From contig JACVJF010000003.1 of NCBI GenBank assembly GCA_015711855.1, positions 1 to 63,780 on the forward strand: a stretch of DNA of 63,780 nt, in the 5' to 3' direction. The notes under the pieces are model-generated. The model had not been told where the DNA came from. It made no database searches and saw only the letters and a program-made list of their open reading frames with translations. This document shows, piece after piece, positions 18,610 through 51,491 of the stretch; positions within the stretch are counted from its first letter, which is position 1, and every line of letters begins with the position of its first letter. The DNA comes from Candidatus Solincola quzhuomuensis (GTDB lineage: Bacteria; Actinomycetota; Geothermincolia; Geothermincolales; RBG-13-55-18). The translations under genes were made by a program, and so were the position numbers.

Positions 18610-18684
18610 GCCGGTGTAGCTCAATGGTAGAGCGTCCGCCTTGTAAGCGGTTGGTTGGAGGTTCGATTCCTCTCACCGGCTCCA
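18610..18684 (+). tRNA. tRNA-Thr (anticodon UGU)
   Basis: Acceptor stem GCCGGTG/CACCGGC, D-arm GCTCAATGGTAGAGC, anticodon loop CTTGTAA, GGTTCGATTCC T-arm, encoded CCA. Confidence 0.97.
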
Positions 18685-24042: not shown

Positions 24043-24261
24043 TAGATCCGCCTTTCCTAGTGTCTCGGGCTCAGCCTTCCGAAAGACGCCATATGAAGCC
24101 GCTTTCCTATAATAACCTCTCACGAGGTCAAGATGACCGCCGGCCTTCAGGTGCGGGGTCGCAGGAGGGAATTCTTCGTCAACTTATCGAACTCGTCAAG
24201 AGAATCGTCTTAAAGAAGGGCCGCCGCAGACACCGACCGGGGGGAAAGGACTGCAAGCCGT

Positions 24262-25338
24262 TCAGCGCGGGATTACCTCCACCAGAAGGTCTCCGTCTTC
24301 TTTCAGTTCCCACTCCACCTCGCTTTCCCCCCCGAAGGCTATCTCGAAAAGACCTTGGGTCAAACCCACGCCCAGCAGCGGCAGGGCCACGTTCTCCATC
24401 TTCAGCTGCACGCCTCTTCTTCCTATGCGCAGGTATGCGAGGTATCCCAGTCCCCGAACGGCCAGCTTCTCCCGCATGCCCTCTTCCCCGGTAACCTCCT
24501 CCACACCGAAAAAGCCGGACTTGACGAAGCGCCTCTGGGCCTCCACGACCACCTTGGGAATAGTTTCCCCGAGTTCGGCCTCCAGCTCCTCGAAGACGGG
24601 ATCGATGATGGATGGACCGGTCAGCACCATGCGTCGACCGGTGGCCGTGCTCCTTATGGAGCCGTTGGCCAGGTCCCACTTGAACTCACGGAGCGCCAAG
24701 GGGGCATCGCATGAAGAGCACCTTTCCATCCGCCACTCGGCTCTCTTGTACTCGCGCGCATAAGCGGACCAGCGCAACCTGCTCTTGAGCTCGGGCGGGT
24801 TCGGGGACTCGAAGACGGTTATGCAGAAAACCCCGGGCGAAGTCTCCTCATATTCCACCCCGGGCTCCCTTCCCACCAGGGCTTCCACGGACCCGGCTAA
24901 ACTCCCTACCGCCAGCGGGACGGAAAAAGGGCGCTCCGCGAGAACGGTGATGAAGTCGTCTTCCTTGCCTTCATACTTGATGTCCACCAGGTTGAGCACG
25001 CCGTAACCCATGGCCTTCCAGATGAGAAAGGTGGGCTCAATGATAAGCTTCAGGTCTACCCCGCCCTCCGCGACCGTCTCCCTGACGTCCTCCGGCACCA
25101 CACCGCGCATGTAATCGCGTGCCGATCTTCGCGAGGCATCCACTACCAGGCGGTCGATGGGAAGGCCGATCAACTCGGATATCCCGTTGAAGAGGGGATC
25201 CAAATTTCCACACTCGAAGAGGACCAGTCTCTGTTTCGCTTCCCTTCGGGACTGGATCACTCCGTTCTCCGTCCAGGCGTGCTGACTGCTGATATAGAGG
25301 GGTAATCCGCACTGAGTGCAAGTTTCGAAAGCGTGCAT
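24262..25338 (-). CDS. Hypothetical protein with tandem CxxC + V4R-like modules (paralogue 1)
   Basis: 358-aa ORF with RBS; internal duplication; colinear with 37254-38324. Confidence 0.8.
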   Translation of the reverse strand: MHAFETCTQCGLPLYISSQHAWTENGVIQSRREAKQRLVLFECGNLDPLFNGISELIGLPIDRLVVDASRRSARDYMRGVVPEDVRETVAEGGVDLKLIIEPTFLIWKAMGYGVLNLVDIKYEGKEDDFITVLAERPFSVPLAVGSLAGSVEALVGREPGVEYEETSPGVFCITVFESPNPPELKSRLRWSAYAREYKRAEWRMERCSSCDAPLALREFKWDLANGSIRSTATGRRMVLTGPSIIDPVFEELEAELGETIPKVVVEAQRRFVKSGFFGVEEVTGEEGMREKLAVRGLGYLAYLRIGRRGVQLKMENVALPLLGVGLTQGLFEIAFGGESEVEWELKEDGDLLVEVIPR

Positions 25339-25570: not shown

Positions 25571-26206
25571 TCACTTACCCTCCACCATGAAGCGAACGTG
25601 CTCGCCTATATCCACGGCATGGTCAGCGATACGTTCGAAGAAGCGAGCGATCATCACGATGCGCACCGCCACCTCCAGTTCTTCCTCCCTTCCGCGGTCG
25701 AACTCCTTGAAAAAGCCGCGGTAGAGGCGGTCCACTGCGTCGTCCATGGCATCCAGCTCCCGGGCCATCTCCACGTTGCGTTCCTTAAAGCATTCCATGG
25801 CCCTCTCCACTAGCCGGATGGCCCGACGAGCCATCTCGTCAATGGCCTCCCTTATCCAAGAGTGAATCCGGTCTACACGGATGTTCTTAACCGCCATCGC
25901 TATGTCCTCGCAGAGGTCCGCCATGCGCTCGAACTTCTGGGCGATACGCATGATGACGATTATCAGCCGCAGGTCGATGGCCACGGGGGCCTGCCGCGCG
26001 AGCAGTTCGAGCCCTCCCTCCTCCAGCCGGTTGCGGTAATCGTCGAAAAGATCGTCCCCGGCGATGATGTCATCCGCCGCATCCCTGTCGAGCTCCAGGA
26101 AACACAGGCGGGTCTTCTCTATGATGCGCAGGAGGTCGCTGCCCATGCGCAGGGTCTCCTCGTAAAGCTCATTTAGCCTCTGGTGAAAATCCTTTCTGGC
26201 CTCCAA
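25571..26206 (-). CDS. phoU: Phosphate signalling protein PhoU
   Basis: QAPVAIDLR, ERMADL, DDAVD, FERIADHAVDI; TTG start after GAGGAG (GTG 26233 is an alternative). Confidence 0.93.
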   Translation of the reverse strand: MEARKDFHQRLNELYEETLRMGSDLLRIIEKTRLCFLELDRDAADDIIAGDDLFDDYRNRLEEGGLELLARQAPVAIDLRLIIVIMRIAQKFERMADLCEDIAMAVKNIRVDRIHSWIREAIDEMARRAIRLVERAMECFKERNVEMARELDAMDDAVDRLYRGFFKEFDRGREEELEVAVRIVMIARFFERIADHAVDIGEHVRFMVEGK

Positions 26207-26370
26207 AACATCTCTCCTCTCAACGCTCGTCACGCTCCGCGAGGGTTTCCCCGCCTCACCCCCTTAGGAACTAAGCCGGCCGGAATCTCTTCACGCAGGC
26301 CTTCCCCTTTTCCGGACCCGGATCCCCTCGCTTCGGGCGGCGCGCCCTCCTGGGACCTGGCGGCGCCCTT

Positions 26371-35592: not shown

Positions 35593-36777
35593 TTATTCCA
35601 CCTTCTCCCAAAGGGTGGCGTTGGCGTTTCCGAAGCCGCCGCACAGAGTGGCGATGGCTCGCTTGGCCTCCGGGAAGTCCTTCTTCATGATGTTGTTCAG
35701 GGTGATGACGATGCGGCATCCGGACTCCCCTAGGGGATGACCCAGGGCCAGCGCCCCGCCCCACACGTTTATGTTGTCAAAGGGGGCGTTCTGCCCGATG
35801 CCCAGTTCGCGGATGACCGCCAGGGCCTGGGTGCCGAAGGCCTCGTTGAGCTCCCAGAGGTCGATGTCGTTTATGGTTAGTCCCTTGCGGGCCAGGAGCT
35901 TCTGTACCGCGTACACCGGCCCTATCCCCATGATGGTGGGGTCGCAACCGGCCATGCACCCGCCGCCATAACGGAGGTGATAGGAGAGACCCAACTCGTC
36001 GGCCTTCTCCCGGCTCATAAACAGCGCAGCGCAGGCCCCTACCGTCAGGGGTGAGCTGATGGCCGCGGTGACGATGCCGTCGGGCTTGAAGGCCGGCTGC
36101 ATCTGGGCCATCTGCTCCAGGCTGGGGTTATCCCGGATCCACTGATCGCGGTCGCAGAGGAACTCGTTCCCGTTCTCGTCCAGAGCGGGTATGGGGACGA
36201 TCTCGTCCTTGAACTTTCCGGCGTCGCGGGCGTCGCGGGCTTTAATGTGGCTCCAGTAGGCCATGAGTTCGGCGTCGGCGCGGGAGACGTTGTAGACCTC
36301 GGCAATCTTCTCCGCCGTGGCCCCCATGGGAAGTTCGAGGGGGTTGTAATACTGGGCGATACGGGGCGGGATGTCCATACCCGCGGCCATGGGTACGTTC
36401 ATCATGTCTTCCACCCCGGAGGCGATGAAGATCTCGCCTTCCCCGGCCATGATAGCCCGGCAGGCATGTTCGATGGCCGACATCCCCGAGGGGCACTGCT
36501 GGTTGATGCCGTTGGTAGGCACGCTCTCCGGCAGCCCGGAGGCCAGCCACCCAAGGCGGGCGATGTCGTTCTGCATGCCGGTCTGGTTGGCGGTGCCGCA
36601 GAACACCGCGTCCACGTCCTCCGGCTTCACCTGCGGGTTGCGCTCGAAGAGCGCCTTGTACACGTAGGTGAGTAGTTCGTCCGGACGCAGGTGCCGAGCC
36701 CATCCCTTTTCCTTGTGGGCCCGGAAGTTGGGAGTCCTCACCCCGTCCACCAAGACCGCTTCCTTCAATTCTGCCAT
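35593..36777 (-). CDS. Acetyl-CoA C-acyltransferase (classical thiolase)
   Basis: NQQCPSG, NEAF, GGALALGHPLGESG and LCGGFG catalytic motifs. Confidence 0.92.
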   Translation of the reverse strand: MAELKEAVLVDGVRTPNFRAHKEKGWARHLRPDELLTYVYKALFERNPQVKPEDVDAVFCGTANQTGMQNDIARLGWLASGLPESVPTNGINQQCPSGMSAIEHACRAIMAGEGEIFIASGVEDMMNVPMAAGMDIPPRIAQYYNPLELPMGATAEKIAEVYNVSRADAELMAYWSHIKARDARDAGKFKDEIVPIPALDENGNEFLCDRDQWIRDNPSLEQMAQMQPAFKPDGIVTAAISSPLTVGACAALFMSREKADELGLSYHLRYGGGCMAGCDPTIMGIGPVYAVQKLLARKGLTINDIDLWELNEAFGTQALAVIRELGIGQNAPFDNINVWGGALALGHPLGESGCRIVITLNNIMKKDFPEAKRAIATLCGGFGNANATLWEKVE

Positions 36778-37253
36778 GTCCCTTACTCTCCTTCCTATCC
36801 TCCGATGCTTACAATAAAACACCTCTCCATCGAGGCCTCTATGACCTTCACGCCATACATGCAGTCGACCTCCCTCCTCCCCGGAAACCCCGAGCTCACC
36901 TTCTCGACCTTGCTGTCCCGCCTTTCCGGGAGAAGTTACCGAAGATAAAACAAGGCTTGGGTAATTATATCAAATTCATGACATCCGAGTACCCGATCAA
37001 GGGAGGGCTTCGTAGGGCAGAGACTCGGTCGGCAGCCGGCCATGACGGATTTTCTCGTTCGTGAAGAGGGAGGTGTCAGCGGATAAGCGGCCGTTAAACC
37101 CAGACGTAAAAAGACCGCGAGGAGGGCGGATGTGTCCGGTTGGGTGGAGTGGTAAACTAACATAGACCGAGAGATTCCGTCAAAAGCAGAGGAGAAAAGG
37201 CCGGGGGGTCGACATCTCGATCCGACCTCCACTAAAACATGGGAGGAGTGGAT

Positions 37254-38324
37254 ATGGAAGGCGTGGAGTTCTGTCCGGTGTGCGGCGTGCCGCGCCAGTT
37301 CGTGGAGAACCATACCTGGCTCGACAACGGCGTGATCGTCCAGACCTCCGATCGCCAGCACCGCATGGTGATCATGGAGAGCGAGAACCTGGACAATCTC
37401 TACCGCGGCATAGAGGAGATCATAGGTATACCCGTGGAGCGTATCGTCATCGAGACCAAGCGAAGGGCTACCCGGGAATACATAGACCGACTGGTGCCGG
37501 AAGAGGTCAAGGACATGGTGTTCCGCAAGGAGCTCGACATAGAGTTGTTGATCCAAGCCAACAACAACATCGCCCGCATCATGGGTTACGGGGACGTGCG
37601 CGTGAAGGGCTACAGGTTGGAGTTCGACGAGGGCGATTACCTCGAGGAAGAGGTGAGAAACCCATACTCCGTACCCATGTGGTGCGGGGACCTGGCGGGG
37701 GCGGTGGAAGCCGTGACTCGCCGCGACAACGACGTGGAATACCGCATGATCTCCTCAGACGTGGTGGAGATCAAAGCCTTTCCTGCGGAACATCCCCCTC
37801 AGTTCCAGGGGCGGCTGGAGTTGAAGGAGTACCATTTGCTCGAGGGGGAGGTCGGCCTGGACCGCTGTAAAACGTGCGGAGGACCTTCGGGTCTCTCCGC
37901 CCTCAAGTGGGCCCTGGAGGAAGGCACCATCAAGGACACCACCACGGGTCGGCGGGTGGTCATGCTCGGGCCCGCTTACCAGGAAGCGGTCTTCGAGGAG
38001 CTGGAGAGGGAGCTCGGAGAGGAGATCCCGCAAACCATCGTGGAGGCCCAGAGGCGCTTCGTGAGATCCGGCTTTTACCGGGTGAAGGAGATAGAGAGCG
38101 AGGATCAGTTCCGCAAGCTTCTGGCCCTACGCGGCCTGGGCAACCTACGCACGCTGGCTTTGGAGGGAGACCGGCTGCGGGTCCGCCTGGAAAATGCTGC
38201 CCTCCACCTAATGATCGTGGGGTTGCTGCAAGGCTACCTGGAGACCCTCACCGGTCGCGATTCGGCCGCGGAGTGGAATCTTACCCCGGAGGGAGTTCTC
38301 GAATTGGAGATCGTCGCCCGTTAA
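37254..38324 (+). CDS. Hypothetical protein with tandem CxxC + V4R-like modules (paralogue 2)
   Basis: 356 aa, GGAGGAG RBS; colinear with 24262-25338. Confidence 0.8.
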   Translation: MEGVEFCPVCGVPRQFVENHTWLDNGVIVQTSDRQHRMVIMESENLDNLYRGIEEIIGIPVERIVIETKRRATREYIDRLVPEEVKDMVFRKELDIELLIQANNNIARIMGYGDVRVKGYRLEFDEGDYLEEEVRNPYSVPMWCGDLAGAVEAVTRRDNDVEYRMISSDVVEIKAFPAEHPPQFQGRLELKEYHLLEGEVGLDRCKTCGGPSGLSALKWALEEGTIKDTTTGRRVVMLGPAYQEAVFEELERELGEEIPQTIVEAQRRFVRSGFYRVKEIESEDQFRKLLALRGLGNLRTLALEGDRLRVRLENAALHLMIVGLLQGYLETLTGRDSAAEWNLTPEGVLELEIVAR

Positions 38325-38458: not shown

Positions 38459-39907
38459 TCACGCGCTCGAAGCGGAGCGCCCGGGAAGGACGGAGACGAA
38501 AATCCTCCAGTCGGAGGCGTCGAAGGTACGCAGCAAGAAGAGCGCTCCCAGATAGGAGGCCACGTACACCGGCGCGAGGCCATAGAAGGGAAGGGCGGAG
38601 CGCAGGGGGAGGCATACCATTGCAGCCCCCAAGGCGGCCAAAGCCGGCTTCCAGTTCCCCAGAAGGCGGGGATGGATACGCATGTGTCTCCAGGCCAGAA
38701 AGAGGGTTAACCCCAGCATGGCCACCTCCGAGATCAGGGTGCTGACCGCAGCGCCCAAAAACCCCATTGCCGGAGCCAACGCCAGGCACAGGACCACGTT
38801 CAATCCCGCGCAGGACAGGATGGCCATCATGCTCAGCTTCTGCTTGTAGTGCGCGTTCATGAGATCGATGAGAGGTATGTAGGTGAAGCTGAAAAGCGGG
38901 ATGGCGGCCAGGACCCAAAGGGCGGATCGGGCGGAGAGGTAGGATTCCCCGTAGATCATTCTTATAAGCTGGGGGGCAAAAAGGGCCATGATCCCGCAGA
39001 AGGGCAGGCTGACGCAAGCCAGATATTTGACCACCCTGCGTATGACCTCCCGGTGTCTATGATCGGAGGACCTTCCTATCCTGGAGAGAAACGGAAACAC
39101 TGCGGTCATACAGGTGGCGGGAACCACGGCCATGGCCCAGATGATGCGGTACGCGGAGCTGAACAGGCCGGCCTGGTGATCGCCCTTGAAGGCGGAGACC
39201 AGCACCGTGTCCGTATACCCGAAGAGAAAGGTCACCAGCCCAATGATCCCGAAGGGCAGGGCGCCGGCGATCATCTTCTTCCAGAAGGCCAGGTTCCAGG
39301 TAAAGGCGGGCTGGCCCATCCTGCGGGTCAGGATGACGAAGTCCACCCCTAAAGAGACCACCGCCCCCACCATCAGGGCGTAGGAGATACCCACCAACCC
39401 GTAGCCCTTGAGCAGTAGGAACGAGCCCACCCCGAAGGTCAAGAGGATATCCACCAGGTCGGAGAGGGCCTGGTACTTCATGACCTCGAAGGCCTGGAAG
39501 ACGGCATCGAAGAATCGCCTCAGCCCGGTGAACACCACGTAGCTCAGCCCGATGAGAAAAAGAGGAAGACGGGTATCGGTGGACCGGGAGGTTAGGGCTA
39601 TGACGGCATAGATGATCCCCGCACTGGCTATCCCGGTCAGGAGCCTCAGCACCGTCAGGTCGCCCACGTACCGGGCCACGTTGTCCCGGTTGGCGGCCAG
39701 CTCCCTCACCACCAGCTTGGGAAGGCCCATCTCCCCCAGGATGAGCAGGATATAGGCCAGGGAAAGGGCGAAGGAATAGGCGCCGAAGCCCTCCGTTCCC
39801 AGCCGGCGGGCTACGAGCACGGTGAAGAGGGGCATGAGCACCGCGCGGAAGGTCCCCCCTCCCATGATCACCAATATGTTCCTGGCTATTCTCTTGGCGT
39901 CTTCCAA
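38459..39907 (-). CDS. Wzx/MOP-family oligosaccharide flippase
   Basis: 12-14 TMs; ARRLGTEGFGAYSFAL and QAGLFSSAYRI patterns. Confidence 0.8.
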   Translation of the reverse strand: MEDAKRIARNILVIMGGGTFRAVLMPLFTVLVARRLGTEGFGAYSFALSLAYILLILGEMGLPKLVVRELAANRDNVARYVGDLTVLRLLTGIASAGIIYAVIALTSRSTDTRLPLFLIGLSYVVFTGLRRFFDAVFQAFEVMKYQALSDLVDILLTFGVGSFLLLKGYGLVGISYALMVGAVVSLGVDFVILTRRMGQPAFTWNLAFWKKMIAGALPFGIIGLVTFLFGYTDTVLVSAFKGDHQAGLFSSAYRIIWAMAVVPATCMTAVFPFLSRIGRSSDHRHREVIRRVVKYLACVSLPFCGIMALFAPQLIRMIYGESYLSARSALWVLAAIPLFSFTYIPLIDLMNAHYKQKLSMMAILSCAGLNVVLCLALAPAMGFLGAAVSTLISEVAMLGLTLFLAWRHMRIHPRLLGNWKPALAALGAAMVCLPLRSALPFYGLAPVYVASYLGALFLLRTFDASDWRIFVSVLPGRSASSA

Positions 39908-40159: not shown

Positions 40160-42088
<1,929 letters not shown>

Positions 42089-42343
42089 GTTCGCCCTCCT
42101 TGTCGCCAAGCCGTTCTCGACTTGCCACTCCCTGCCTGTCCTCGGCACGCATATGCTGCGGCATGCACGCACATGCTCCGACGATAATTATTATCGGCGA
42201 CCGGTCGGCGGTTGAAACGGCGGGTACCACCGCCCGCAGGGGATGAGAGGTCCCCACCTTACCAACAGAAAGGAACGAACAGTGCTGCAAGGTTAAAGCC
42301 GCCCTTAAACTCCCTTATTCGTTTTTCCTGCGAGATCGACGCT

Positions 42344-43201
42344 TCAGAGTAAGCGGCGCCCGACCAGGGAAGCAACGCGCAAGCAGAACATGGGTGCCAG
42401 GCGCTTCATGCCGTAAAGGAGGTAAGCCTCTTTTCCCAGGAGGACAAGGAATTTCCCGGCGGCTACCGCTTCCACTATTTTCCTGCCGGCGACCTCGGGG
42501 TCCATGCCCCTTTCCCGAAGCATGGCCGCGTAGCGCTCCTCGTTAACCTTCTGTTTTTCCGTGCGGTAGTGATTGCGGCTGCGGAAACCTATGTCCGTGC
42601 TGATGGCCCCGGGACAGACCACGGTCACCCCCACCCCGTGATTGCGAGCCTCCGCCCAGAGCATCTCCGAGAGGCCCATGACGCCGAACTTGGTCACCGT
42701 GTAGGCCACGTGGAGAGGGAGGGCGGCGAAACCGGACACGGAGGCGATGTTCACGATGTGGCCCTCGCCGCGTTGGACCATATGAGGGAGGAAAAAGCGG
42801 CACCCGTAGATCTCCCCCATGAGGTTCACGCCCACGATCCACTCTATGTCCTCGACGGGGATAACGTCCAGCTCTCCGGAAACGGCCACTCCGGCGTTGT
42901 TCACCAGGATGTCCACCCCTTGCGTTCCGGAAGTCAATCTCTTGGCAAGATCTTCCATGAGTTTACGGTCGGAGACGTCCACCGTTTCCGTCGCGCACTT
43001 CACGCCCTGGGATTCCACCGCGCCGCGGACCCTTTCCAGTCCTTGTGCATCGATGTCCACAGCCACCAGGTCGCATCCCGCCCGGGCCAAGGCCAGGGCT
43101 ATACCCCTTCCCAGGCCGGAGGCGGCTCCAGTGACCACGGCCCTCCTTCCCCGGAACCACTCCATACTTTTACGGCCCGGCAAATTCCCCTTTTCGCCCA
43201 T
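42344..43201 (-). CDS. Short-chain dehydrogenase/reductase
   Basis: TGAASGLG, NNAG, YTVTK. Confidence 0.9.
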   Translation of the reverse strand: MGEKGNLPGRKSMEWFRGRRAVVTGAASGLGRGIALALARAGCDLVAVDIDAQGLERVRGAVESQGVKCATETVDVSDRKLMEDLAKRLTSGTQGVDILVNNAGVAVSGELDVIPVEDIEWIVGVNLMGEIYGCRFFLPHMVQRGEGHIVNIASVSGFAALPLHVAYTVTKFGVMGLSEMLWAEARNHGVGVTVVCPGAISTDIGFRSRNHYRTEKQKVNEERYAAMLRERGMDPEVAGRKIVEAVAAGKFLVLLGKEAYLLYGMKRLAPMFCLRVASLVGRRLL

Positions 43202-43247
43202 CGTTCCCTCCCTTTCTCGGGGTATTTAAGCCAAAGGGTCCCTTTTC

Positions 43248-44102
43248 CTACTGGATGAGGCCCTTGCGCGCCATCCACAGGAGGAGACGCCGTCCCAGGT
43301 CGTCGCGGTTGAAGAAGGCCAGGGTACCGTGATATAAGCCGGGCCGCATGCGCTTCAGGGCCCAGAAGAACCGGCCGGAAGGTTGGGGGATGACGTAGAG
43401 CTTCCTCCTCTCCACCGCCCGCAAGACGGCCTCCGCCACCTGATCCGCCGTCATCCTGGCGTGATCGAAAGAGGTATGGGCGAACTCCCTCTCGAAATCG
43501 TCTGTGCAGCGCAGGGTCTCCAGCAGGCGGGTCTTGAAGAACATGGGGCAGACTACGGTGACCCCGATGCGGTAAGGGGCCAGCTCGCTCCGGAGGGTCT
43601 CGGAAAGGGCGATGACCGCCGCCTTGGTGACGTTGTAGGGTGCCATCTCCGGGAGGGCGAGAAGTCCGGCCGCCGAGGCCACGTTCACGATCCATCCCCC
43701 TCCTTGAGCCTTCATGCGGGGGATGAAGAAGTGGCACCCGTAGAGCATTCCCCAAAAGTTGATCCCCAATATCCACTCCCAGTCCTCCAGCGGTGCCTGG
43801 CCCACGAAACCGGCAGCGGCCACCCCGGCGTTGTTCACCAGGACGTCCACCCCTCCCCAGGAGGTGAAGAAATGGGCGGCCATGGCTTCCACTTCCTCCG
43901 GTCGGCTCACGTCGAGAAGGTAGAACTCGCCGTCACCGCCTCTTTCTCTAACGGTCTTCAGGGTCTCCTCCGCCCGATCGACGTCTACGTCCGCCGCGCC
44001 GATGCGGCATCCCCTCGCGGCCAGGGCCAGCGAAAGCGCTCTGCCCAGCCCGGAACCAGCCCCGGTTATCACCACCCTCTTGCCCGCCAGCCTATACATC
44101 AT
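43248..44102 (-). CDS. Short-chain dehydrogenase/reductase
   Basis: TGAGSGLG, NNAG, YNVTK. Confidence 0.9.
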   Translation of the reverse strand: MMYRLAGKRVVITGAGSGLGRALSLALAARGCRIGAADVDVDRAEETLKTVRERGGDGEFYLLDVSRPEEVEAMAAHFFTSWGGVDVLVNNAGVAAAGFVGQAPLEDWEWILGINFWGMLYGCHFFIPRMKAQGGGWIVNVASAAGLLALPEMAPYNVTKAAVIALSETLRSELAPYRIGVTVVCPMFFKTRLLETLRCTDDFEREFAHTSFDHARMTADQVAEAVLRAVERRKLYVIPQPSGRFFWALKRMRPGLYHGTLAFFNRDDLGRRLLLWMARKGLIQ

Positions 44103-44332
44103 CCACCCCCTTAACTCTCACATCTTCGAGCGAAGGGCCGCTCTTTTTGCCCTCTCCTCGTTCTTTAATGAAGTCGAGGTCAATGCCGAAGCCGATGCTT
44201 TCCTGTTTCTCGCCCGCCTTTTACCTCTCCTCCATACCGATTTCGGCGTTCCGCGCCGCTCGAAATTCTCCGGGTTCTTCCTGCCACTAAGGCTCCACCC
44301 GAAAAAGAATCCTCGTTACGCCGCCTTTACCG

Positions 44333-45685
44333 TCAAGTTTCGTAGAGCCTCTCGAAGACCTGGCCCTTGTAGGTGGAGCGCTCCAGCTCGCCGGGCTCGG
44401 CCCAGACGATCTCCGGGGTGAACTTGGCTTTGACGTGGAAAGCCTCCTTCATCTCCGCCTCCAGCTCGGGGAGCTTTTCCACGGGGAAATCCTCGCCTCG
44501 TTCGATCTTCACCTTCAGGGGAGGCACCACGCGGGGTGGCCTCTCGGTGAGCACGATGCGGAACTGCCCGGTGACCCGGGGGACGAAGGAGGAAACCACG
44601 CCCTCCACCATGGAGGGATAGACTATGACCCCTTTCACCTTGAGCATGTCGTCGGTGCGTCCCACCACCTTGTAGCGGAAGCCGGTGCGGCCGCAGGGAC
44701 AGGGAGAGACGAAGACCTGGTGTACGTCCCCCAGGCTGGTGCGCAGCCAGGCCATTCCCTCCCCCTCCATGACGGTGAAGATGGCCTCCCCTTCCGCCCC
44801 GTCCTCCAGCGGTATGGGCTCCTTGGTCTCCGGGTCCACCAGCTCATAATAGGCCAGGTCGTCGGCCGTCCAGTGCATCCCTTGGTACTCCTCGTGGTCG
44901 CAGGAGAAGCCAAACCCCGCCCCGGCGTCGAAGACGCGGCACCCGTAGGCCGACTCCAGTCTCTCCCGCACCTCGGGGATGCCGGCTCCGGGTTCCCCGC
45001 CGCACATGAGCATGCGGAACCCCAGGTCCTTCGGGTCCCGGCCCTGCTCCCGGCACTTCTCGATGAGGTACTCGGCCAGGGAGGGGGTCCCGGAGTAGAC
45101 CGTCCCCCGGAACAGGGTCTGCATGAGCAGGATGCGATCGGTCCCCGCCTCGGCGCCCACGGGTATGGCCATGGCCCCCAATTTGTGCATGCCCATCATG
45201 GTGGGAATGCCGGCGATGACCATGGACAAGGCAAAGCAGAAGAGCACCCGATCGTGGGAGCGCACGCCTGCCCGCCAGGCCCCCCTCACCATGGCCTCGC
45301 CCCACACGTCCTCCATGTCGTGGCGGGTCATGGGGTAGGGGGTAGGCACGCCGGTGGTTCCGGTGGTGGTGGCCATGATGTTTAGGTCGTCGACGGACAC
45401 GGGGATGATCTGGTCGATGACCTTGAGGATATCCCCACCGAACTCCACCACCATGGCCCGCAACCTCTCCTTGTCGAAGAGGGGCACGGCTCTCGCGAAG
45501 TCCTCGAAGCTATTTATCTTCTCCGGCTTTAAACCCAACTCGTCGAACTGCCTGGTGTAGAAGGGAGCGTTGTCGTAGAGTCGCTGCAGAAGTTTTTTGA
45601 GCTTGGCCAGCTGTATCTCCCGCATCTGCGGGGTGTTTAAGATGGGCTCCATCTCCATGTTCCAGTAAGGCCGCTCTTTTTCCAT
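44333..45685 (-). CDS. Phenylacetate--CoA ligase (PaaK)-family acyl-CoA ligase
   Basis: TTGTTGVPT, GGEPG, GRTDDMLKVKGVIVYP. Confidence 0.85.
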   Translation of the reverse strand: MEKERPYWNMEMEPILNTPQMREIQLAKLKKLLQRLYDNAPFYTRQFDELGLKPEKINSFEDFARAVPLFDKERLRAMVVEFGGDILKVIDQIIPVSVDDLNIMATTTGTTGVPTPYPMTRHDMEDVWGEAMVRGAWRAGVRSHDRVLFCFALSMVIAGIPTMMGMHKLGAMAIPVGAEAGTDRILLMQTLFRGTVYSGTPSLAEYLIEKCREQGRDPKDLGFRMLMCGGEPGAGIPEVRERLESAYGCRVFDAGAGFGFSCDHEEYQGMHWTADDLAYYELVDPETKEPIPLEDGAEGEAIFTVMEGEGMAWLRTSLGDVHQVFVSPCPCGRTGFRYKVVGRTDDMLKVKGVIVYPSMVEGVVSSFVPRVTGQFRIVLTERPPRVVPPLKVKIERGEDFPVEKLPELEAEMKEAFHVKAKFTPEIVWAEPGELERSTYKGQVFERLYET

Positions 45686-45759
45686 TTTCCGCCTCCAATT
45701 CCACTCGTCCCCTGTTGAAGGGGAGGGGATTTCACACCCCTGATCACGGCCTCGTTTCT

Positions 45760-45798
45760 ATACCCTTTGGGGTATCAAATTTCAAGACCTGACCCCTT
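45760..45798. repeat. 39-nt hairpin-containing dispersed repeat, copy 2
   Basis: ATACCC-TTTG-GGGTAT-CAAATTTCAAGACCTGACCCCTT; matches 6407-6445. Confidence 0.8.
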
Positions 45799-46129
45799 AA
45801 AAATTCCTGGGGGGGACCATCTCCGCTCGGTGGAGCGCCTTGTAGAAGCCGCCGAAGTCGTAACCTTGTTCCGCCCGGATGGCCCCCCGCTTGCAGATGG
45901 CGGCGCAGGCGTTGCAGGACATGCAGTCGGGCACCGCCTTGTCGACCATGTAGGCCTTGCGATCCCTGCCCACCCCGGCCACGTAAAGGCAGGCCCCGGG
46001 GCAGACGAGGGCGCAGTTCCCGCACCCGTTGCATTTCTCGTGCTCGATTACCACCCGGCCCGCCCGGCAGGTCTTCGGGTCGTTGTAGGTGGGGATGGTC
46101 ATCCTCTCCTTGAGCGTGAGGTAAGCCAT
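45797..46129 (-). CDS. 2x[4Fe-4S] ferredoxin
   Basis: CNGCGNCALVCP and CMSCNACAAIC; ATG 46129 after GAGGAGG. Confidence 0.88.
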   Translation of the reverse strand: MAYLTLKERMTIPTYNDPKTCRAGRVVIEHEKCNGCGNCALVCPGACLYVAGVGRDRKAYMVDKAVPDCMSCNACAAICKRGAIRAEQGYDFGGFYKALHRAEMVPPRNF

Positions 46130-46143
46130 GCCCGCATCCCTCC

Positions 46144-46899
46144 TCAAAAAACGGACCTCTTCCGGCCGCCTTCCCACCAGTCGATCTCGTGCAGCTCGCG
46201 GGCCACCATGCCGTCGGGCTCTCCCACCGGATACCCCAGAGCGATGGCCTCGATGAACCGGTAAGGCCAGGTGGCGCCCAGCTTTTTCTTCCATTTGCTC
46301 CCGAACTTGAGGAGCTCCACGAACCCCACCCAGCAGGTCCCCAACCCCAGGGAGTGCGCCGCCAGGACCATGTTCTGACCGCAGATGCCGATGTCCACCT
46401 GAGGCTTGGAGACCCCCCGCACGTCCTCCAGGATGAAGATAACCGTGGGAGCCCCGTGGAACAGCTTGAGCTTGCCGTCGGCGATGAGGCGTATGGCTCC
46501 GAAGGGTATGGGGTGCAGCTTGTTGGGCATGAGCCGGATGTAGATCTGGGAGAGGACCCAAGACAGCCTCCCCAGGGGGCTGCTCTCCCAGTCCAGCATG
46601 AATTTCAGGATTTGGCATCGCCATCTAACATATTTTTCCATTTCATCCAGCATGTCCCGGTCGCGGACTACCACGAACCTCCAGGGCTGGGCGTTTCCCG
46701 CCGAAGGGGCGAACCGACCGGCTTCCAGGATGCGGCGCACCAGCTTCTCCGGGACCTGCTCGTCCCGGTACTTGCGCACGCTGCGCCTCTCCAAGATGAC
46801 CCTCTCTACCGGGTTCCAGTCCATGCCCTCGCGCCAGACGTACATCTCGCCGAACGCGGCTTCCTTCCCGTGTTTCTTCTCCGTCAACGTCTCCACCAT
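46144..46899 (-). CDS. Nitroreductase-family flavoprotein
   Basis: RRSVRKY, APSAGNAQPWRFVVV, LAAHSLGLGTCW, IALGYP. Confidence 0.9.
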   Translation of the reverse strand: MVETLTEKKHGKEAAFGEMYVWREGMDWNPVERVILERRSVRKYRDEQVPEKLVRRILEAGRFAPSAGNAQPWRFVVVRDRDMLDEMEKYVRWRCQILKFMLDWESSPLGRLSWVLSQIYIRLMPNKLHPIPFGAIRLIADGKLKLFHGAPTVIFILEDVRGVSKPQVDIGICGQNMVLAAHSLGLGTCWVGFVELLKFGSKWKKKLGATWPYRFIEAIALGYPVGEPDGMVARELHEIDWWEGGRKRSVF

Positions 46900-47128
46900 T
46901 AATCCCCCCCTCAATCCATGTCCCGTAGCCGGGCGTGGGCCGAGCGCGGCTTTCCCTAAAGGACACGCGCTCATGCCATGCCTCCACCGCTTTACCTTCC
47001 CGCCCCGTCAGTCGCCGGGTGCCGAAGCGAAGACCCGGCCCGTACCGAGGCGATATCCGCCCCTTCATTTCCTCGCTCCGTCCGCGATGAATGCCGTGGC
47101 CCTTCGCAGGCAGACCGGTTGTGCCTTC

Positions 47129-48646
47129 TCAATCCTCGAAGACCCGGGCCTCGGGAGCCGCCGGAGAGACGAGGCACTTGAAGAGGTTCAGTCGATTGAG
47201 CTGGTTGGTCCCCTCGTAGATCTGCAGGAGCTTGGCGTCGCGCAGGCACTTCTCCGCCCGTCGATCGTGACGCAGGCCCGCCTGGCCCATGAGCTCCAAG
47301 GCCAGCTGGCAGTTCCTCACCCCCAGGTCGGTGCCCGCCACCTTGGCCAGGGAGGCCCATCCCGACGCACGCCTCGCCTCCTCGTCGCTCTGTCCGTCCA
47401 TGACCAGTTTACGGAAGACTTTGGTCACCGCCTCCTTGGCGTTGACCGCCGGCATCAGGCGGTCCATGACCCGGTTCGGTGCGTAGCGATGATAATAATA
47501 GAGCGGTTTGAAGCCGAGCAGGCGAGCCATCCCGTACATGCTGTTGGAATAATTGGCCTCCATGTAGGAAAGCCTGGCCAAGGCGGCGTTCTTGTACATC
47601 TCCGCCAAGAGACATTGGGCCCACTCGTGGTTGACGAGGAGGCGCCCCTCCACTTCCGTCTCCCTGGCGAACTGCAGGGCCAGCTCGAAGGCCCCCCGGG
47701 CCACGCCCGCACCCATGGCCCCCACCCCGGGCCGGGTGGCGGAAACGACGAAATCTATGAGCTGCATCCCCGCCTCCCTGGGGCTCCTCCTCATCCCCAT
47801 ATCCCGCGCTTGAGAGGCGGAGACGAGCACGTATTCGTCGGGTATGAAACAGTCCTCGAAGACCAGCTCGCTGGCCGGGCAGCCCTTCTGCCCCATCTTC
47901 TTCTCCATGCGACCGAAGGAGAAACCGGGTATCCCGTTTTTCACCGCTAAGGCGATCATGGTCTCGTCCGGATGTTCCAAATCCTCATAGGCTACCAAAA
48001 TATGCCAGGTAGATAAGTGCCCGTTGGAGATGAATATCTTGCGCCCGTTGACCACGTAGCCTCCCTCCACCCTGCGCGCCTGACAGCGAACCTTGGCCCG
48101 GGCCAGGAGCTCCACCTCCTCGGCGTCCGTACCCGCCTCCGGCTCGGTCACCGCTCCCGAGACCAGGCAGGGCTTCCCGTTCCTCTCCCCTTCCACCACC
48201 TCCCGGCTGATCAGATCTATGAGCCGGATGTTCCAGGTAGCCGCCAGTATGGAGTAACCGAAATAGTGCACCCCGATGAGGTTGGTGATGGCCAGGCACT
48301 CCGAGGCCAGTTCCTCCACGAAGGGGGAAATGCTGGTCAAGCTCCAACCCTTGCCCCCGAAGAGCTTGGGGATCCACATGGTGAAGAAACCCCAGCGGTT
48401 GGCCTCCTCCACCAGTTCCCAGGGGAGGTGGGTGGGGTCCTCCTGCATCTTGCGGTCCAAATCCAGGGAGTAGGAGTGCGCCACGGCACGGTTGAAACGC
48501 CGTGCCATAGCCACCGCCTGACGACATTCCTCCACCACCCCTATGGGCATCCTCTCCAGGGCCGTCAGGCTGTGCATGGTGTCCGTGAAGTCCGGGAACT
48601 CCCGGAGGAGCTCCGAGGATTCGCCCTTTCTCCACATCCCTCTCAC
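47129..48646 (-). CDS. Acyl-CoA dehydrogenase (catalytic Glu present, long form)
   Basis: VTEPEAGTD, NGRKIFISNG, KMGQKGCP, RDAKLLQIYEGTNQ; ATG 48637 is an alternative start. Confidence 0.9.
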   Translation of the reverse strand: MRGMWRKGESSELLREFPDFTDTMHSLTALERMPIGVVEECRQAVAMARRFNRAVAHSYSLDLDRKMQEDPTHLPWELVEEANRWGFFTMWIPKLFGGKGWSLTSISPFVEELASECLAITNLIGVHYFGYSILAATWNIRLIDLISREVVEGERNGKPCLVSGAVTEPEAGTDAEEVELLARAKVRCQARRVEGGYVVNGRKIFISNGHLSTWHILVAYEDLEHPDETMIALAVKNGIPGFSFGRMEKKMGQKGCPASELVFEDCFIPDEYVLVSASQARDMGMRRSPREAGMQLIDFVVSATRPGVGAMGAGVARGAFELALQFARETEVEGRLLVNHEWAQCLLAEMYKNAALARLSYMEANYSNSMYGMARLLGFKPLYYYHRYAPNRVMDRLMPAVNAKEAVTKVFRKLVMDGQSDEEARRASGWASLAKVAGTDLGVRNCQLALELMGQAGLRHDRRAEKCLRDAKLLQIYEGTNQLNRLNLFKCLVSPAAPEARVFED

Positions 48647-49794
48647 CCCCTAAAGACCCACGGTTTTTCCCCGTCCACCACGCGCCGGATGAAGCGTAGC
48701 TTCCGCAGCGGGGCCATCCCCAGGAGAGCCTGCAGCTGCTTGGCGTCGCGGAAGCGCTTCTCCTGCCCGTAATCCTGCATGTACCCGTTGCCGCCCAGTA
48801 GTTGTATCCCGTCGCAGGCAACCTCGGCTGCCGCCTCCTGGACCTGCAGGGCGGCGGCTCGGGAGGCCAGCTCCCATCCCGCTCTTCGGGAATCCGCGGC
48901 CTCGGCCGCCTCGCGAACCATCATCTCCGCAGCCTTAGTCCGCACGGCCATGGAGGAGAGGATCATGCGCACCTCCGACCAGTTGACGATCTCCCTTCCT
49001 CCCTGCATCCTCTGGCGCGCGTAATCCAGCGCCGTCTCGAAGGAGCCCTTCATCACCCCACAGGAAGCGGCGGCCGCCGCGACGCTCAAGCGGTCCACGG
49101 CGGCCTCGAAATATCCCTCCCCCTTGCCCTCCTCCCCGACCAGCTCACCAGGAGCCTCGTCGAGATGCAGGTCCACCGCCGGGCAGGCATGCAGTCCCAG
49201 GCTGAGCACGGGCTCGCCCGCCAGCACTCCCGAGCTTCCCAGGTCCACCAGGAAGAGGGACCAGCCCTCACCTGCCGAGCGGGCGGGCAGGAGGGCTTTC
49301 CCGGCCAGGTTTCCCAAGACCACGTATTCCGCTTTTCCGGAGAGCCGGTAGGCGCCGCCGTCCCTGCGGGCCTCCAGGGAGAGGGTCGTGTCGGAGGGGT
49401 TGTGGAAGGACGGGAAGGCCGGTAGGGTTTCCCGGAGGGAAGCCCCGCCGGCGCAGATCTTCTTCCATATCTCCTCCGCCCCGGCCAGCCGCAAGAGCTC
49501 CTGGGTCAGGGCCACGGTGAATATCGCCCCTCCCAGGCTGGCGTCCTCCCTACAGACCTCCTCGAGCACCAGGCAAAGAGCCTGGACGGGCTCAGTGGCG
49601 CCCCCCGACTCCTCCGGGGAAAGGATGGTAAAAAATCCTACTTCAAACGCCTTGGACAGGACTTCCTCGAAGAGAGGCGCGAACGGATAGCGGTCCCGTT
49701 CCTCCCTCCCCTCCACGAGTTCCTTGAGGGCGAAGTCCCTGGCCATATCGTCCAGAAGCCTCAACTCCTCGCTCAAGCCGAGCAACGCCATCAC
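48643..49794 (-). CDS. Acyl-CoA dehydrogenase-like protein lacking the YEG motif
   Basis: YARQRMQGG, QLLGGNGYM, RDAKQLQALLG; stop overlaps the next start (GTGA). Confidence 0.85.
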   Translation of the reverse strand: MMALLGLSEELRLLDDMARDFALKELVEGREERDRYPFAPLFEEVLSKAFEVGFFTILSPEESGGATEPVQALCLVLEEVCREDASLGGAIFTVALTQELLRLAGAEEIWKKICAGGASLRETLPAFPSFHNPSDTTLSLEARRDGGAYRLSGKAEYVVLGNLAGKALLPARSAGEGWSLFLVDLGSSGVLAGEPVLSLGLHACPAVDLHLDEAPGELVGEEGKGEGYFEAAVDRLSVAAAAASCGVMKGSFETALDYARQRMQGGREIVNWSEVRMILSSMAVRTKAAEMMVREAAEAADSRRAGWELASRAAALQVQEAAAEVACDGIQLLGGNGYMQDYGQEKRFRDAKQLQALLGMAPLRKLRFIRRVVDGEKPWVFRG

Positions 49795-50199
49795 CCCTTT
49801 CCTCTTCGGAACGGACGATCGAATCCCGAAACGTCATGACGACGGCCTACGGATACGACCACAGGCCAATAGCCGGAACCGTCCGGCGTCGGGCAGGGGT
49901 CGCCCTTACAAAACCTCGTTAACACGGCGCTTACTAACCGATCCGCCGCCATCCCGCCGTCTTTCCACCCTGGTCATCCGCATCCGCCCTCGCCTTTCCC
50001 TTCCCCGCCGACGGGCATAACCCGAAGCCGTCCGCTGCGAGTGTCGGGTTACGCGAGTAGGTCGTCAAGCCCCCTTCCTCTTTCAGGAAATCGGCACGCA
50101 GCCCTTTGCCTATCCTCGCGCTAATTCCCACTAGGGAAGATAGGAAAAACGTCTCGCTCCTCGACGGCTCCCCTAGCGGTATCCGTCTTTTCCGGCCAT

Positions 50200-51441
50200 C
50201 TAAACTTTTTCCAGAATATGGATGCACATGGCCGCTTCTCCCAGCCCGATGAAACCGCCGCCGTTCTCCGCCAGGGCGATGCGCGCCCCTTCCACCTGGC
50301 GGGGACCGGCCTCTCCCCGTAGCTGCAGGACCAGCTCGTATATCTGGGCTATCCCCGAGGCCCCGATGGGATGTCCCCGGCACTCCAGACCACCGCTGGT
50401 GTTCACCGGGAGCCTCCCCCCGATCTCGGTGGCGCCGCTTTCGGCGAAGGGTCCTCCTTCTCCCTCGGGGCAGAACCCCAGTTCCTCGTACTGCATGAGT
50501 TCCCCGAAGGCGGTGGCGTCGTGCACCTCGGCCACGTCCACGTCCTCCGGCCCTAATCCGGCCTTATCATAGGCCTCCCGGCTCAAACGGCGGCCGATGG
50601 ACTCCAACCCCGAGCCGGGGAGGGAGCCCGAGGCCAAAACGGAGGCTCGGACGCGCACCGCCCGGGCTTGGGGGTACTTCCGGAGAGCCCTTTCCGAGCC
50701 GAGGAGGGCCGCCGCCGCCCCGTCGCCGATGGGAGCGCACATGGAACGGGTGAGGGGGTAGGCCACCAGGACGTCCTCCAGGACCTCCTCCACGGTCATG
50801 TCCCTCTGGTACTGCGCCAAGGGGTTGAGGGAGCCGTGACGGTGATTTTTGGCGGCGATGACCGCTAGCTGCCTCTGGGTGGTCCCGTATCTTTGCATGT
50901 GGGCGCGCGCCCCCATGGCATAGACGTCCATGAAGCCGGAATGGCCTCCTCTCTTCTCCTTGCCCTCCGCCCCCACTTCCCGGGCTTTGCGGGCGGCGTC
51001 AGCCTGGAAAACCTCGATGACCTTGCGGGCGAACTCCACGTCCATCCCGGAGAGGAAACCCTCGAACATCTTGGCCTTGTCCTCCGGGAACCAGGTCTTC
51101 TCTGCACCCACCGCCAGCACCAGGTCGAACTCTTCCGCCTTGACGCTCAACCAGGCCTCGCGCAGGGCGGTGGAGCCCCCGGCACAGGCGTTCTCCACGT
51201 TGACGATGGGTATGCCCTGGAGGCCCAAGGGCGCCAAGGCCACCTGCCCGCGGATGCAGTGCTGCCCGGTGTTCATCCCCCACCCCGAGTTGGAGAACCA
51301 GGCCGCTTGGATGTCTTTTCCATCCACCGGCAGGTCCTCGAAGAGGGCCTGCAGGGCCTCGGCGGTCAGTTGCTTGACGCTCTTCTCCGCGTACTTGCCG
51401 AAGCGGGTCATGCCCACGCCCAGGATGTAAACGTCTCCCAT
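50200..51441 (-). CDS. SCP2-type thiolase
   Basis: VENACAGG, EVHDAT, NTSGGLECRGHPIGASG, ENGGG; ATG 51441 after AGGAGG. Confidence 0.9.
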   Translation of the reverse strand: MGDVYILGVGMTRFGKYAEKSVKQLTAEALQALFEDLPVDGKDIQAAWFSNSGWGMNTGQHCIRGQVALAPLGLQGIPIVNVENACAGGSTALREAWLSVKAEEFDLVLAVGAEKTWFPEDKAKMFEGFLSGMDVEFARKVIEVFQADAARKAREVGAEGKEKRGGHSGFMDVYAMGARAHMQRYGTTQRQLAVIAAKNHRHGSLNPLAQYQRDMTVEEVLEDVLVAYPLTRSMCAPIGDGAAAALLGSERALRKYPQARAVRVRASVLASGSLPGSGLESIGRRLSREAYDKAGLGPEDVDVAEVHDATAFGELMQYEELGFCPEGEGGPFAESGATEIGGRLPVNTSGGLECRGHPIGASGIAQIYELVLQLRGEAGPRQVEGARIALAENGGGFIGLGEAAMCIHILEKV

Positions 51442-51491
51442 CTCGCCTCCTTTTCCTCCGAGCCGAAAAGCGGGCGGCGAGCGCCCCTTGG

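Follow-up and report, generated by a model that had tools for sequence, protein, structure and literature searches.

The subject of this study is a pair of genes, A and B, in a 63,780-nt stretch of DNA from Candidatus Solincola quzhuomuensis (contig JACVJF010000003.1, positions 1 to 63,780; the whole stretch that was analysed is hereafter called the window). To judge from their sequences, A and B are old paralogues in an undescribed cytoplasmic family, and we propose, with a probability of about 0.6 and by analogy with proteins of the same fold, that the family protein is a stand-alone, single-chain pseudo-dimer that is clamped by a metal and binds a ligand, either as a sensor or as a carrier. 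The family and its single-chain, putatively knuckle-clamped architecture are new, and the V4R/XylR-type ligand-binding fold is known. The two genes and the parts of their products that carry the argument are as follows.

37254..38324, forward strand (stop codon included): gene A, coding for a 356-aa twin-module protein; open reading frame (ORF) with 258 homologues at E ≤ 1e-3, the best of them 92% identical, and an AlphaFold2 model
24262..25338, reverse strand: gene B, coding for a 358-aa paralogue of A that is 41% identical (ORF, BLASTP)
37254..37793, forward strand: N-terminal module of A (N-module), residues 1-180, with knuckle, beta strands, helices and a V4R-like alpha/beta core; the more variable half (hhalign)
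37851..38321, forward strand: C-terminal module of A (C-module), residues 200-356, of the same fold; the conserved half (hhalign, stand-alone model, Foldseek)
37272..37292, forward strand: knuckle 1 of A, C7-P-V-C10-G-V-P13 (family alignment)
37866..37886, forward strand: knuckle 2 of A, C205-K-T-C208-G-G-P211 (family alignment)
25300-25320 and 24700-24720, reverse strand: knuckles of B, C7/C10 and C207/C210 (sequence)

The ORF that encloses gene A spans 37239..38324 on the forward strand, and we chose the ATG at 37254 as the start, giving 356 residues, because the homologues match from there. BLASTP aligned residues 1-356 of A with residues 1-358 of B (145 of 358 positions identical, 41%; 60% positives; 2 gaps; E 3e-97), which bears out the end-to-end colinearity and near-equal length (356 and 358 aa) described in an earlier note that was made from the letters of the window. 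The shared motifs listed in that note were each found in both copies: in the order A/B, CPVCGVP/CTQCGLP, HTWLDNGVI/HAWTENGVI, TGRRVVMLGP/TGRRMVLTGP and VFEELERELGEEIP/VFEELEAELGETIP, together with MGYG, VEAQRRFV.SGF and RGLG, which are common to both. Its description of two copies on opposite strands, some 12 kb apart and among unrelated neighbours was also accurate; the distance is 11.9 kb, and Pfam assigns a thiolase and a flippase to the surroundings of A versus PhoU and GltX to those of B. No third family copy was detected in the 64-kb window by tblastn. One weak match at 46741-46980, within a 276-aa ORF (46144-46974), was taken as noise, as this ORF has no other similarity to the family.

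The protein is itself a tandem duplication. The N-terminal and C-terminal halves of A are 25% identical over 172 residues (BLASTP, E 3e-10), and profiles built from 45 N-modules and 45 C-modules matched each other over 164 columns with a probability of 99.1% (hhalign, E 4e-19); therefore, the chain consists of two copies of a ~170-aa module. The conserved motifs of the C-module are TGRR, ELExELGExIP, EAQRRF, RGLG, GxxQGxxE and WE. A late-helix G-x3-G doublet, invariant or conserved in more than 90% of members, is present in both modules (G145-x3-G149 and G323-x3-G327), and no clear early-helix doublet was seen in either module, only G58 and G255 at helix ends. Conserved G-x3-G doublets in helices alpha2 and alpha5 have been described for V4R and Bet3 proteins (PMC2253512).

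The AlphaFold2 model of full-length A, built from a 60-sequence alignment, has a mean predicted local distance difference test score (pLDDT) of 94.3 and a predicted template modelling score (pTM) of 0.91, and the C-module modelled alone has a pLDDT of 90.5. The best matches of the full model in the PDB, as found by Foldseek, are the aromatic-effector sensor domains of MopR, DmpR and PoxR, followed by H-NOX, then YslB, the V4R protein MJ1460 and BcsD, and then the TRAPP subunits Bet3/Trs33 and TPC6. To all of these proteins the Foldseek probability is 1.00, with template modelling (TM) scores of 0.44-0.64 per module. The C-module matches PoxR (5frw/5frz) over ~178 columns with an E-value of 1.6e-6 and a query TM-score (TMq) of 0.61-0.64, and this match covers the entire module including its N-terminal strands. 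The predicted two-layer fold, with helices packed on a four-stranded antiparallel sheet, fits the V4R / H-NOX / Bet3 superfold. Given the whole-module match to PoxR, we regard the assignment of the modelled fold at the level of this superfold as firm, and within it the modelled modules appear closest to the XylR_N+V4R sensor domain of PoxR, MopR, DmpR and XylR.

Each module begins with a rubredoxin-type CxxCG-x-P knuckle. Among 283 non-identical full-length members, C7, C10, C205 and C208 are invariant with few exceptions: at C7/C10 these are N-terminally truncated gene calls and one member with a C10-to-G replacement (P0011), and C205/C208 are kept in 282 of the 283, the remaining one being a frameshifted copy. 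The same 283 members share no further conserved candidate for a metal ligand, H20 occurring in 61% only, and the cysteines outside the knuckles (C144 in A; C43 and C172 in B) are not conserved. We infer that the four invariant cysteines, two from each module, bind one shared metal, most likely zinc and possibly iron. As in rubredoxin-type and zinc-ribbon sites, two CxxCG-type knuckles would supply the four ligands; unlike in those sites, a stretch of ~195 residues separates the knuckles, each of which heads a module, and both fall below the Pfam threshold (weak zinc-ribbon matches in 43 of 60 members, which reflect the knuckles only). The block around knuckle 2 has a pLDDT of 96 in the full-chain model versus 80-89 in the isolated module.

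The packing of the two modules was analysed by mean-field direct coupling analysis (DCA) on the 283 sequences (effective number of sequences, Neff, 222; 61,425 pairs ranked). The signal is informative, because the strongest couplings within modules (297-313, 121-128 and 339-353, for example) fall on hairpins of the model. Inter-module pairs make up 8-10 of the top 20, among them 40-235, 17-210, 136-223, 136-225, 126-336, 53-258 and 3-212. Pairs 40-235, 136-223 and 136-225 place the N-terminal strands of the C-module against the N-module sheet; a further inter-module pair, 134-236, lies within the top 180 of the 61,425 pairs, and the mirror pairs 39-317, 43-317 and 38-337 come further down, at ranks of ~100-115. 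In pairs 53-258, 71-256, 49-266 and 63-254 the first helices of the modules face each other. Pairs 17-210 and 3-212 join the two knuckle regions, and the knuckle-to-knuckle pairs, which stand at ranks 4, 20 and 57, weakly suggest that the knuckles are adjacent. The residue couplings as a whole support an interlocked arrangement in which the N-terminal arm of each module lies on the sheet of the other. The two sensory domains of DmpR are intertwined through their residues 18-45, which gives a tightly interlocked homodimer (PMC7264223), and V4R and TRAPPC3 dimers join via their N-terminal helices (PMC10933270). Since the modules would interlock as the subunits of the DmpR homodimer do, the family protein can be described as a covalently linked pseudo-dimer.

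The family is narrowly distributed. A search of 5.8 billion proteins gave the 258 relatives of A, none of which carries a Pfam domain; all named relatives come from metagenome-assembled genomes (MAGs) of Actinomycetota, for example Candidatus Solincola. An exhaustive profile search of 1.84 billion cluster representatives gave 534 matches at E ≤ 1e-3, of which 237 reached E ≤ 1e-30; nearly all are ~355 aa long. A search of sequencing runs gave only weak DNA holders and no RNA run. We also scanned GTDB, one genome per species, with a single family-specific peptide pattern, so that the resulting counts are lower bounds; at least 71 loci were found, all in Geothermincolia-type MAGs (Solincola, Geothermincola, Anoxymicrobiaceae and unnamed Actinomycetota). 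As found so far, the family is thus confined to Geothermincolia-type Actinomycetota, a deep-branching hot-spring and subsurface group. A search with the C-module profile for single-module relatives outside the lineage returned only truncated fragments of the same family. One MAG, DYIU01, is labelled Acidimicrobium ferrooxidans; its five copies (L037, L043, L053, L054 and L055) nest among those of Geothermincolia in the tree, and the label is probably wrong.

Copy numbers were counted per MAG as full-length genes, tandem neighbours included. The four richest MAGs hold 9, 9, 9 and 8 copies, DYIU01, which with contigs of up to 1.1 Mb is the least fragmented assembly, holds 5, and the MAGs closest to the window hold 3 (JACIXB01) and 2 (JACVJH01). 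Tandem pairs occur at six loci (L010, L012, L014, L020, L023 and L051), and the largest tandem array consists of four head-to-tail genes that are 33-38% identical to A (L057:3319-8484, CAKZMC010000006.1). A maximum-likelihood tree of 81 members contains at least eight well-supported clades, each with genes from several MAGs, and the paralogues are therefore old. Gene A clusters with L001 and L002 (80% identical), and B lies in a separate old clade with L039 (68% identical) and L014_4760. A distant subfamily (64 members of 374-380 aa, ~20% identical, from Actinomycetota MAGs only) has the same two-knuckle tandem architecture. Five copies are split by frameshifts or stops (L037:4793-5850, L056:6001-7069, L066:6001-7068, L067:6001-7051 and L062:6001-6759); they are either pseudogenes or errors of MAG assembly.

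These data agree with the earlier note in its view of a lineage-expanded stand-alone family, given at least eight old paralogue groups and tandem arrays of up to four genes among the relatives, and its proposal to count homologues and their taxonomic spread yielded the profile matches and the single lineage of named members given above. Its claim that the family is undescribed also held, as searches of A and B against Pfam, NCBIfam, PADLOC and PDB returned no sequence or profile match; with no PADLOC match, a role as a defence system was set aside. The prediction of many copies per genome was right for relatives with up to nine or more, and it fits less well the two nearest MAGs with their two or three.

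The two modules differ in how much they vary between paralogue groups. Mean column identity is 53% in the C-module versus 42% in the N-module, universally conserved positions number 42 of 156 versus 28 of 180, and positions that are conserved within paralogue groups and different between them number 2 in the C-module versus 8 in the N-module. At positions 67-69, 143 and 146, for example, the A group has E-T-K, W and D where the B group has D-A-S, a and N. Position 146 is a DCA hub coupled with 69, 112 and 138, all in the N-module, and in the non-significant hhalign alignment of the N-module to XylR-type domains (below) it stands opposite the conserved Tyr of the G-Y-A-S-G-Y block of the XylR family. 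This Tyr is probably the cavity-lining Tyr155 of DmpR (PMC7264223), and we equate it with position 146 only tentatively. The equivalent positions of the C-module (the EAQRR helix, L295 and L324) are invariant. As read from the alignment, the pattern would fit a variable, specificity-setting half joined to a constant half, and it does not in itself prove ligand binding. The earlier note had proposed to look for a variable pocket with a conserved surface; what emerged from mapping conservation is a modified form of this, with the variation between groups held in the N-module and the C-module nearly constant.

We picture the working of the protein as follows. A metal held by the four cysteines would staple both arms, replacing the Cys/Glu/Cys/Cys zinc site that lies inside each DmpR-type domain. 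A small molecule, probably hydrophobic or amphipathic to judge from the fold family, would be held in the module cavity. The N-module would set the specificity, including through the co-varying cluster 69/112/138/146, because most between-group differences lie there, and the C-module, since it scarcely varies from group to group, would offer a site for a common ligand or a surface for a common partner. As the chain lacks an output domain and its gene nearly always forms a transcription unit of its own (non-family genes lie on the same strand within 50 bp upstream in 3 of 71 cases and downstream in 4 of 75), the protein would work in trans, contacting a partner protein as a sensor or else carrying or buffering its ligand. 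Of the sensing or signalling system envisaged in the earlier note, a sensor-type fold was indeed found, from which the "sensing" is read, whereas no "signalling" system emerged: the family has no output domain, fusion, constant neighbour or shared upstream motif. A bolder version, which we consider unlikely, is that the family forms an output-less pseudo-dimer sensor class of Geothermincolia, in which the N-modules read different metabolites and the C-module together with the Cys4 clamp signals to one common partner. If true, this would be a many-inputs, one-output sensing network without counterpart among the described one- and two-component systems; in its sharper form, the clamp would bind iron, whose redox state would gate ligand sensing.

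Several observations weigh against a ligand-binding pseudo-dimer. The proposed function is drawn from analogy of fold, and TM-scores of 0.5-0.64 are moderate. Even with the cut-off relaxed to E ≤ 10, neither V4R (PF02830) nor XylR_N (PF06505) matched A, B, 60 homologues, both module consensuses or the distant subfamily; the A domain of XylR from plasmid pWW0, used as a positive control, scored 2.1e-31 (XylR_N) and 7.9e-11 (V4R). In hhalign comparisons with ten XylR-type A-domain sequences (alignment A4), neither the C-module (probability 17.9%, E 1.4e-3, 55 columns) nor the N-module (probability 2.9%, E 0.016, 116 columns) reached significance, though each alignment keeps the topologically correct register; homology to V4R/XylR_N is therefore not demonstrable from sequence. 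As to the packing, the enrichment of helix-helix pairs in the DCA is weak (p 0.06), and the hypergeometric p of ~0.016 for the knuckle-to-knuckle pairs comes from few pairs in regions picked post hoc. Covariation of the K69/D146 type may mark a structural pair and not ligand contacts. In the C-module, conservation often falls on charged residues (RR, E, Q, R), a pattern also in keeping with a polar ligand, an interface or an active site.

The closest known structures are the A domains of PoxR, MopR, DmpR and XylR (XylR_N PF06505 plus V4R PF02830; 5frw, 5frz, 5kbe, 6iy8), which give the best whole-module structural match. The order of elements is the same, with an R-M strand, a helix ending in 'LG', a second helix, a G-x-G turn and the late G-x3-G helix, and the units of the DmpR homodimer interlock via N-terminal arms, as the coupling pairs suggest for the modules here. 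In contrast to that homodimer, the two units are fused in one chain, and the family has no AAA+ sigma-54 activator or DNA-binding output domain. DmpR has a hydrophobic phenol cavity and an intradomain zinc site formed by Cys151, Glu172, Cys177 and Cys185 (PMC7264223). The cysteines of this site are invariant or nearly so in the XylR-family alignment A4, whereas the site is absent from the present family, which has the N-terminal CxxC knuckles instead; the His and Trp that position phenol are likewise not conserved in it.

Stand-alone V4R proteins (COG1719: MJ1460, 2oso; BchJ; those of Ignicoccus hospitalis) resemble the family in being free of other domains, in sharing the superfold and in their capacity for lineage expansion. 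They are thought to bind hydrophobic molecules and to act in trans, and Ignicoccus hospitalis has seven (PMC2253512); V4R and Bet3 proteins in general dimerise and bind hydrophobic ligands (PMC10933270, PMC2253512). Unlike the present proteins, they are single-domain and recognised by the Pfam V4R model, whereas ours are tandems of larger modules with Cys knuckles and go unrecognised. TRAPP Bet3/Trs33, TPC6 and the Asgard TRAPPC3-like proteins share the fold, and the tandem mimics a Bet3/Trs33-type heterodimer in one chain. TRAPPC3-like and Bet3 proteins form dimers through N-terminal helices and have an internal hydrophobic cavity, and the protein from a Thor archaeon has a Cys4 zinc site (PMC10933270). 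There, however, zinc ties sheet to helix within one domain, whereas the cysteines of the family would meet between modules, and the family has no link to vesicle tethering. The haem-based NO/O2 sensors of the H-NOX type also share the fold (TM ~0.45-0.5). Stand-alone H-NOX proteins signal in trans to kinases and cyclases and offer a model for a sensor without an output domain. Nothing suggests haem in the family, unlike in H-NOX: the alignment has no invariant His that could serve as the proximal ligand (H20 being present in 61%), and the Y-x-S-x-R motif is missing from both modules, the N-module having P-Y-S-x-P.

Geothermincolia are uncultured, deep-branching, mostly thermophilic anaerobic Actinomycetota whose physiology is inferred from genomes only. 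A family of up to nine or more diverged copies that Pfam and NCBIfam do not see probably contributes substantially to the handling or sensing of small molecules in these organisms, and it justifies a new family model in place of the annotation "hypothetical protein". Structurally, the interlocked DmpR/PoxR dimer would here occur naturally as a single chain, its zinc site shifted to a putative inter-domain clamp. DmpR/MopR-type domains are widely used as biosensor scaffolds, and thermostable, covalently dimerised and naturally diversified domains could serve in the same way once their ligands are known.

The genes that adjoin A and B in the window, as assigned by Pfam, are these.

35593-36780, divergent from A: thiolase
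38459-39907, convergent with A: Wzx/MurJ-type flippase
25571-26233, beside B: PhoU
22612-24123, beside B: GltX

PstB is also among the neighbours of B. Each clade has its own conserved neighbourhood. In the A type the order is an unknown gene, the divergent thiolase, the family gene, the convergent flippase and a short-chain dehydrogenase/reductase (SDR). The B type lies directly upstream of gltX, which adjoins B, L039 and L014_4760. A third type follows a PASTA kinase, an FAD reductase and a B12-radical-SAM gene, and downstream of it come a MazG gene, a GAF-HisKA_3 kinase, a LuxR-type regulator and a gene of the distant subfamily. A fourth lies amid GT4 glycosyltransferases and a UDP-glucose dehydrogenase, and a fifth follows a CbbQ/NorQ-type ATPase. 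Genes of the distant subfamily are convergent with a GAF-HisKA_3 histidine kinase and a LuxR-type response regulator in at least four MAGs (L011:11632-12768, L028:6552-7691, L070:11314-12450 and L050:11373, all on the reverse strand), and this pair is the sole recurrent link to signalling genes. JACIXB01 has both the radical-SAM-associated type and the distant type, and in JACVJH01 the contig ends within the locus of the former, short of where the latter would be expected; for the genome of the window we predict at least four copies, namely A, B and one of each of these two types. The earlier note had suggested looking for recurrent neighbours or fusions: comparison of 71 loci revealed no neighbour common to the whole family, and the members, of ~355 aa and with no extra domain, showed no fusion. 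One apparent fusion of 549 aa (P0158) was rejected, its low-complexity Arg/Ser/Pro-rich tail being a read-through into another frame. Family genes are nearly always transcriptionally alone. In CAYPZH01, a thiolase lies directly upstream of family genes of different clades at two separate loci (L008 and L020), which could reflect either a segmental duplication or a real pairing.

These neighbourhoods bear on two other readings of the family. It might be a structural or scaffold protein of the envelope, like BcsD or Bet3/Trs33, that joins the machinery of the membrane or of polysaccharide synthesis. The fold matches include BcsD and TRAPP subunits, A adjoins a Wzx/MurJ-type flippase, and the groups found amid glycosyltransferase genes or after the PASTA kinase set would suit such a role. 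Such neighbours, however, are specific to single paralogue groups and mostly lie at distances above 100 bp or on the other strand; as all loci come from one class, the shared synteny may be merely inherited. The protein has no membrane or secretion signal, and the best fold matches are ligand-sensing domains, so we rate the envelope reading as distinctly unlikely. The least probable of the alternatives, in our estimate, is an accessory subunit or enzyme of acyl-CoA or beta-oxidation-type metabolism, for example a substrate carrier for the divergent thiolase. A thiolase is directly upstream and divergent for A and members of three clades (8 loci, with CAYPZH represented twice), and AMP-dependent ligases, SDRs and acyl-CoA dehydrogenases lie within 6 kb in ~22 of 71 loci. 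Such genes are abundant in these genomes, however, and we rejected a functional tie on finding no enrichment by adjacency (5.1% at distance 1 versus 7.1% further out; Fisher p 0.55); moreover, B and several other groups have no such neighbours, and the protein has no recognisable catalytic motif.

The knuckles invite yet another reading, in which a metal centre, either Fe(Cys)4 or a labile Zn(Cys)4, makes the protein a sensor of redox state or metal status in place of an organic ligand, with oxidation or loss of the metal opening the pseudo-dimer. Both knuckles have the CPxCG or CxxCG form typical of rubredoxin-type sites, the four cysteines are invariant and the hosts are hot-spring and subsurface anaerobes. 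However, Cys4 zinc sites in the fold family are structural (PMC10933270, PMC7264223), no Pfam rubredoxin match rose above threshold, and redox sensing would leave up to nine diverged paralogues with a variable N-module unexplained. We hold this reading to be improbable, less so than the acyl-CoA role and more so than the envelope scaffold. We prefer the ligand-binding pseudo-dimer with its putative metal clamp.

Two elements were noted upstream of gene A.

37241..37248, forward strand: Shine-Dalgarno-like GGGAGGAG, 5 nt before ATG 37254, read from the sequence and found in the same place in orthologues L001 and L002
37150..37158, forward strand: TGGTAAACT, candidate extended -10

The earlier note had given A its own extended -10. 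The element is present where it was placed; it went undetected in a scan for sigma-70 consensus promoters, and the upstream regions of the 80%-identical orthologues do not conserve it, so it stays a candidate. The divergent intergenic region between the thiolase gene and A (36823-37253, ~430 bp) matches nothing in Rfam, contains no consensus promoter and is not conserved at the orthologous loci. A regulatory RNA in this leader thus found no backing from Rfam, whose sole match in the window is a tRNA at 18610-18681. In a k-mer analysis for a promoter or operator shared upstream of family genes, only Shine-Dalgarno-like words were recovered.

Two further features of the window lie outside the family. 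On the forward strand, a 420-aa ORF at 34098-35360 matches an inorganic pyrophosphatase domain at residues 269-416 only; either its start is over-called or it carries a 268-aa N-terminal extension with no Pfam match. On the reverse strand, 40160-53213 is a dense block of acyl-CoA metabolism genes, which comprises the following.

40160-42172 and 51492-53213, reverse strand: AMP-dependent ligases
44333-45685, reverse strand: PaaK-like ligase
42344-43201 and 43248-44102, reverse strand: two SDRs
47129-48646 and 48643-49794, reverse strand: two overlapping putative acyl-CoA dehydrogenase paralogues

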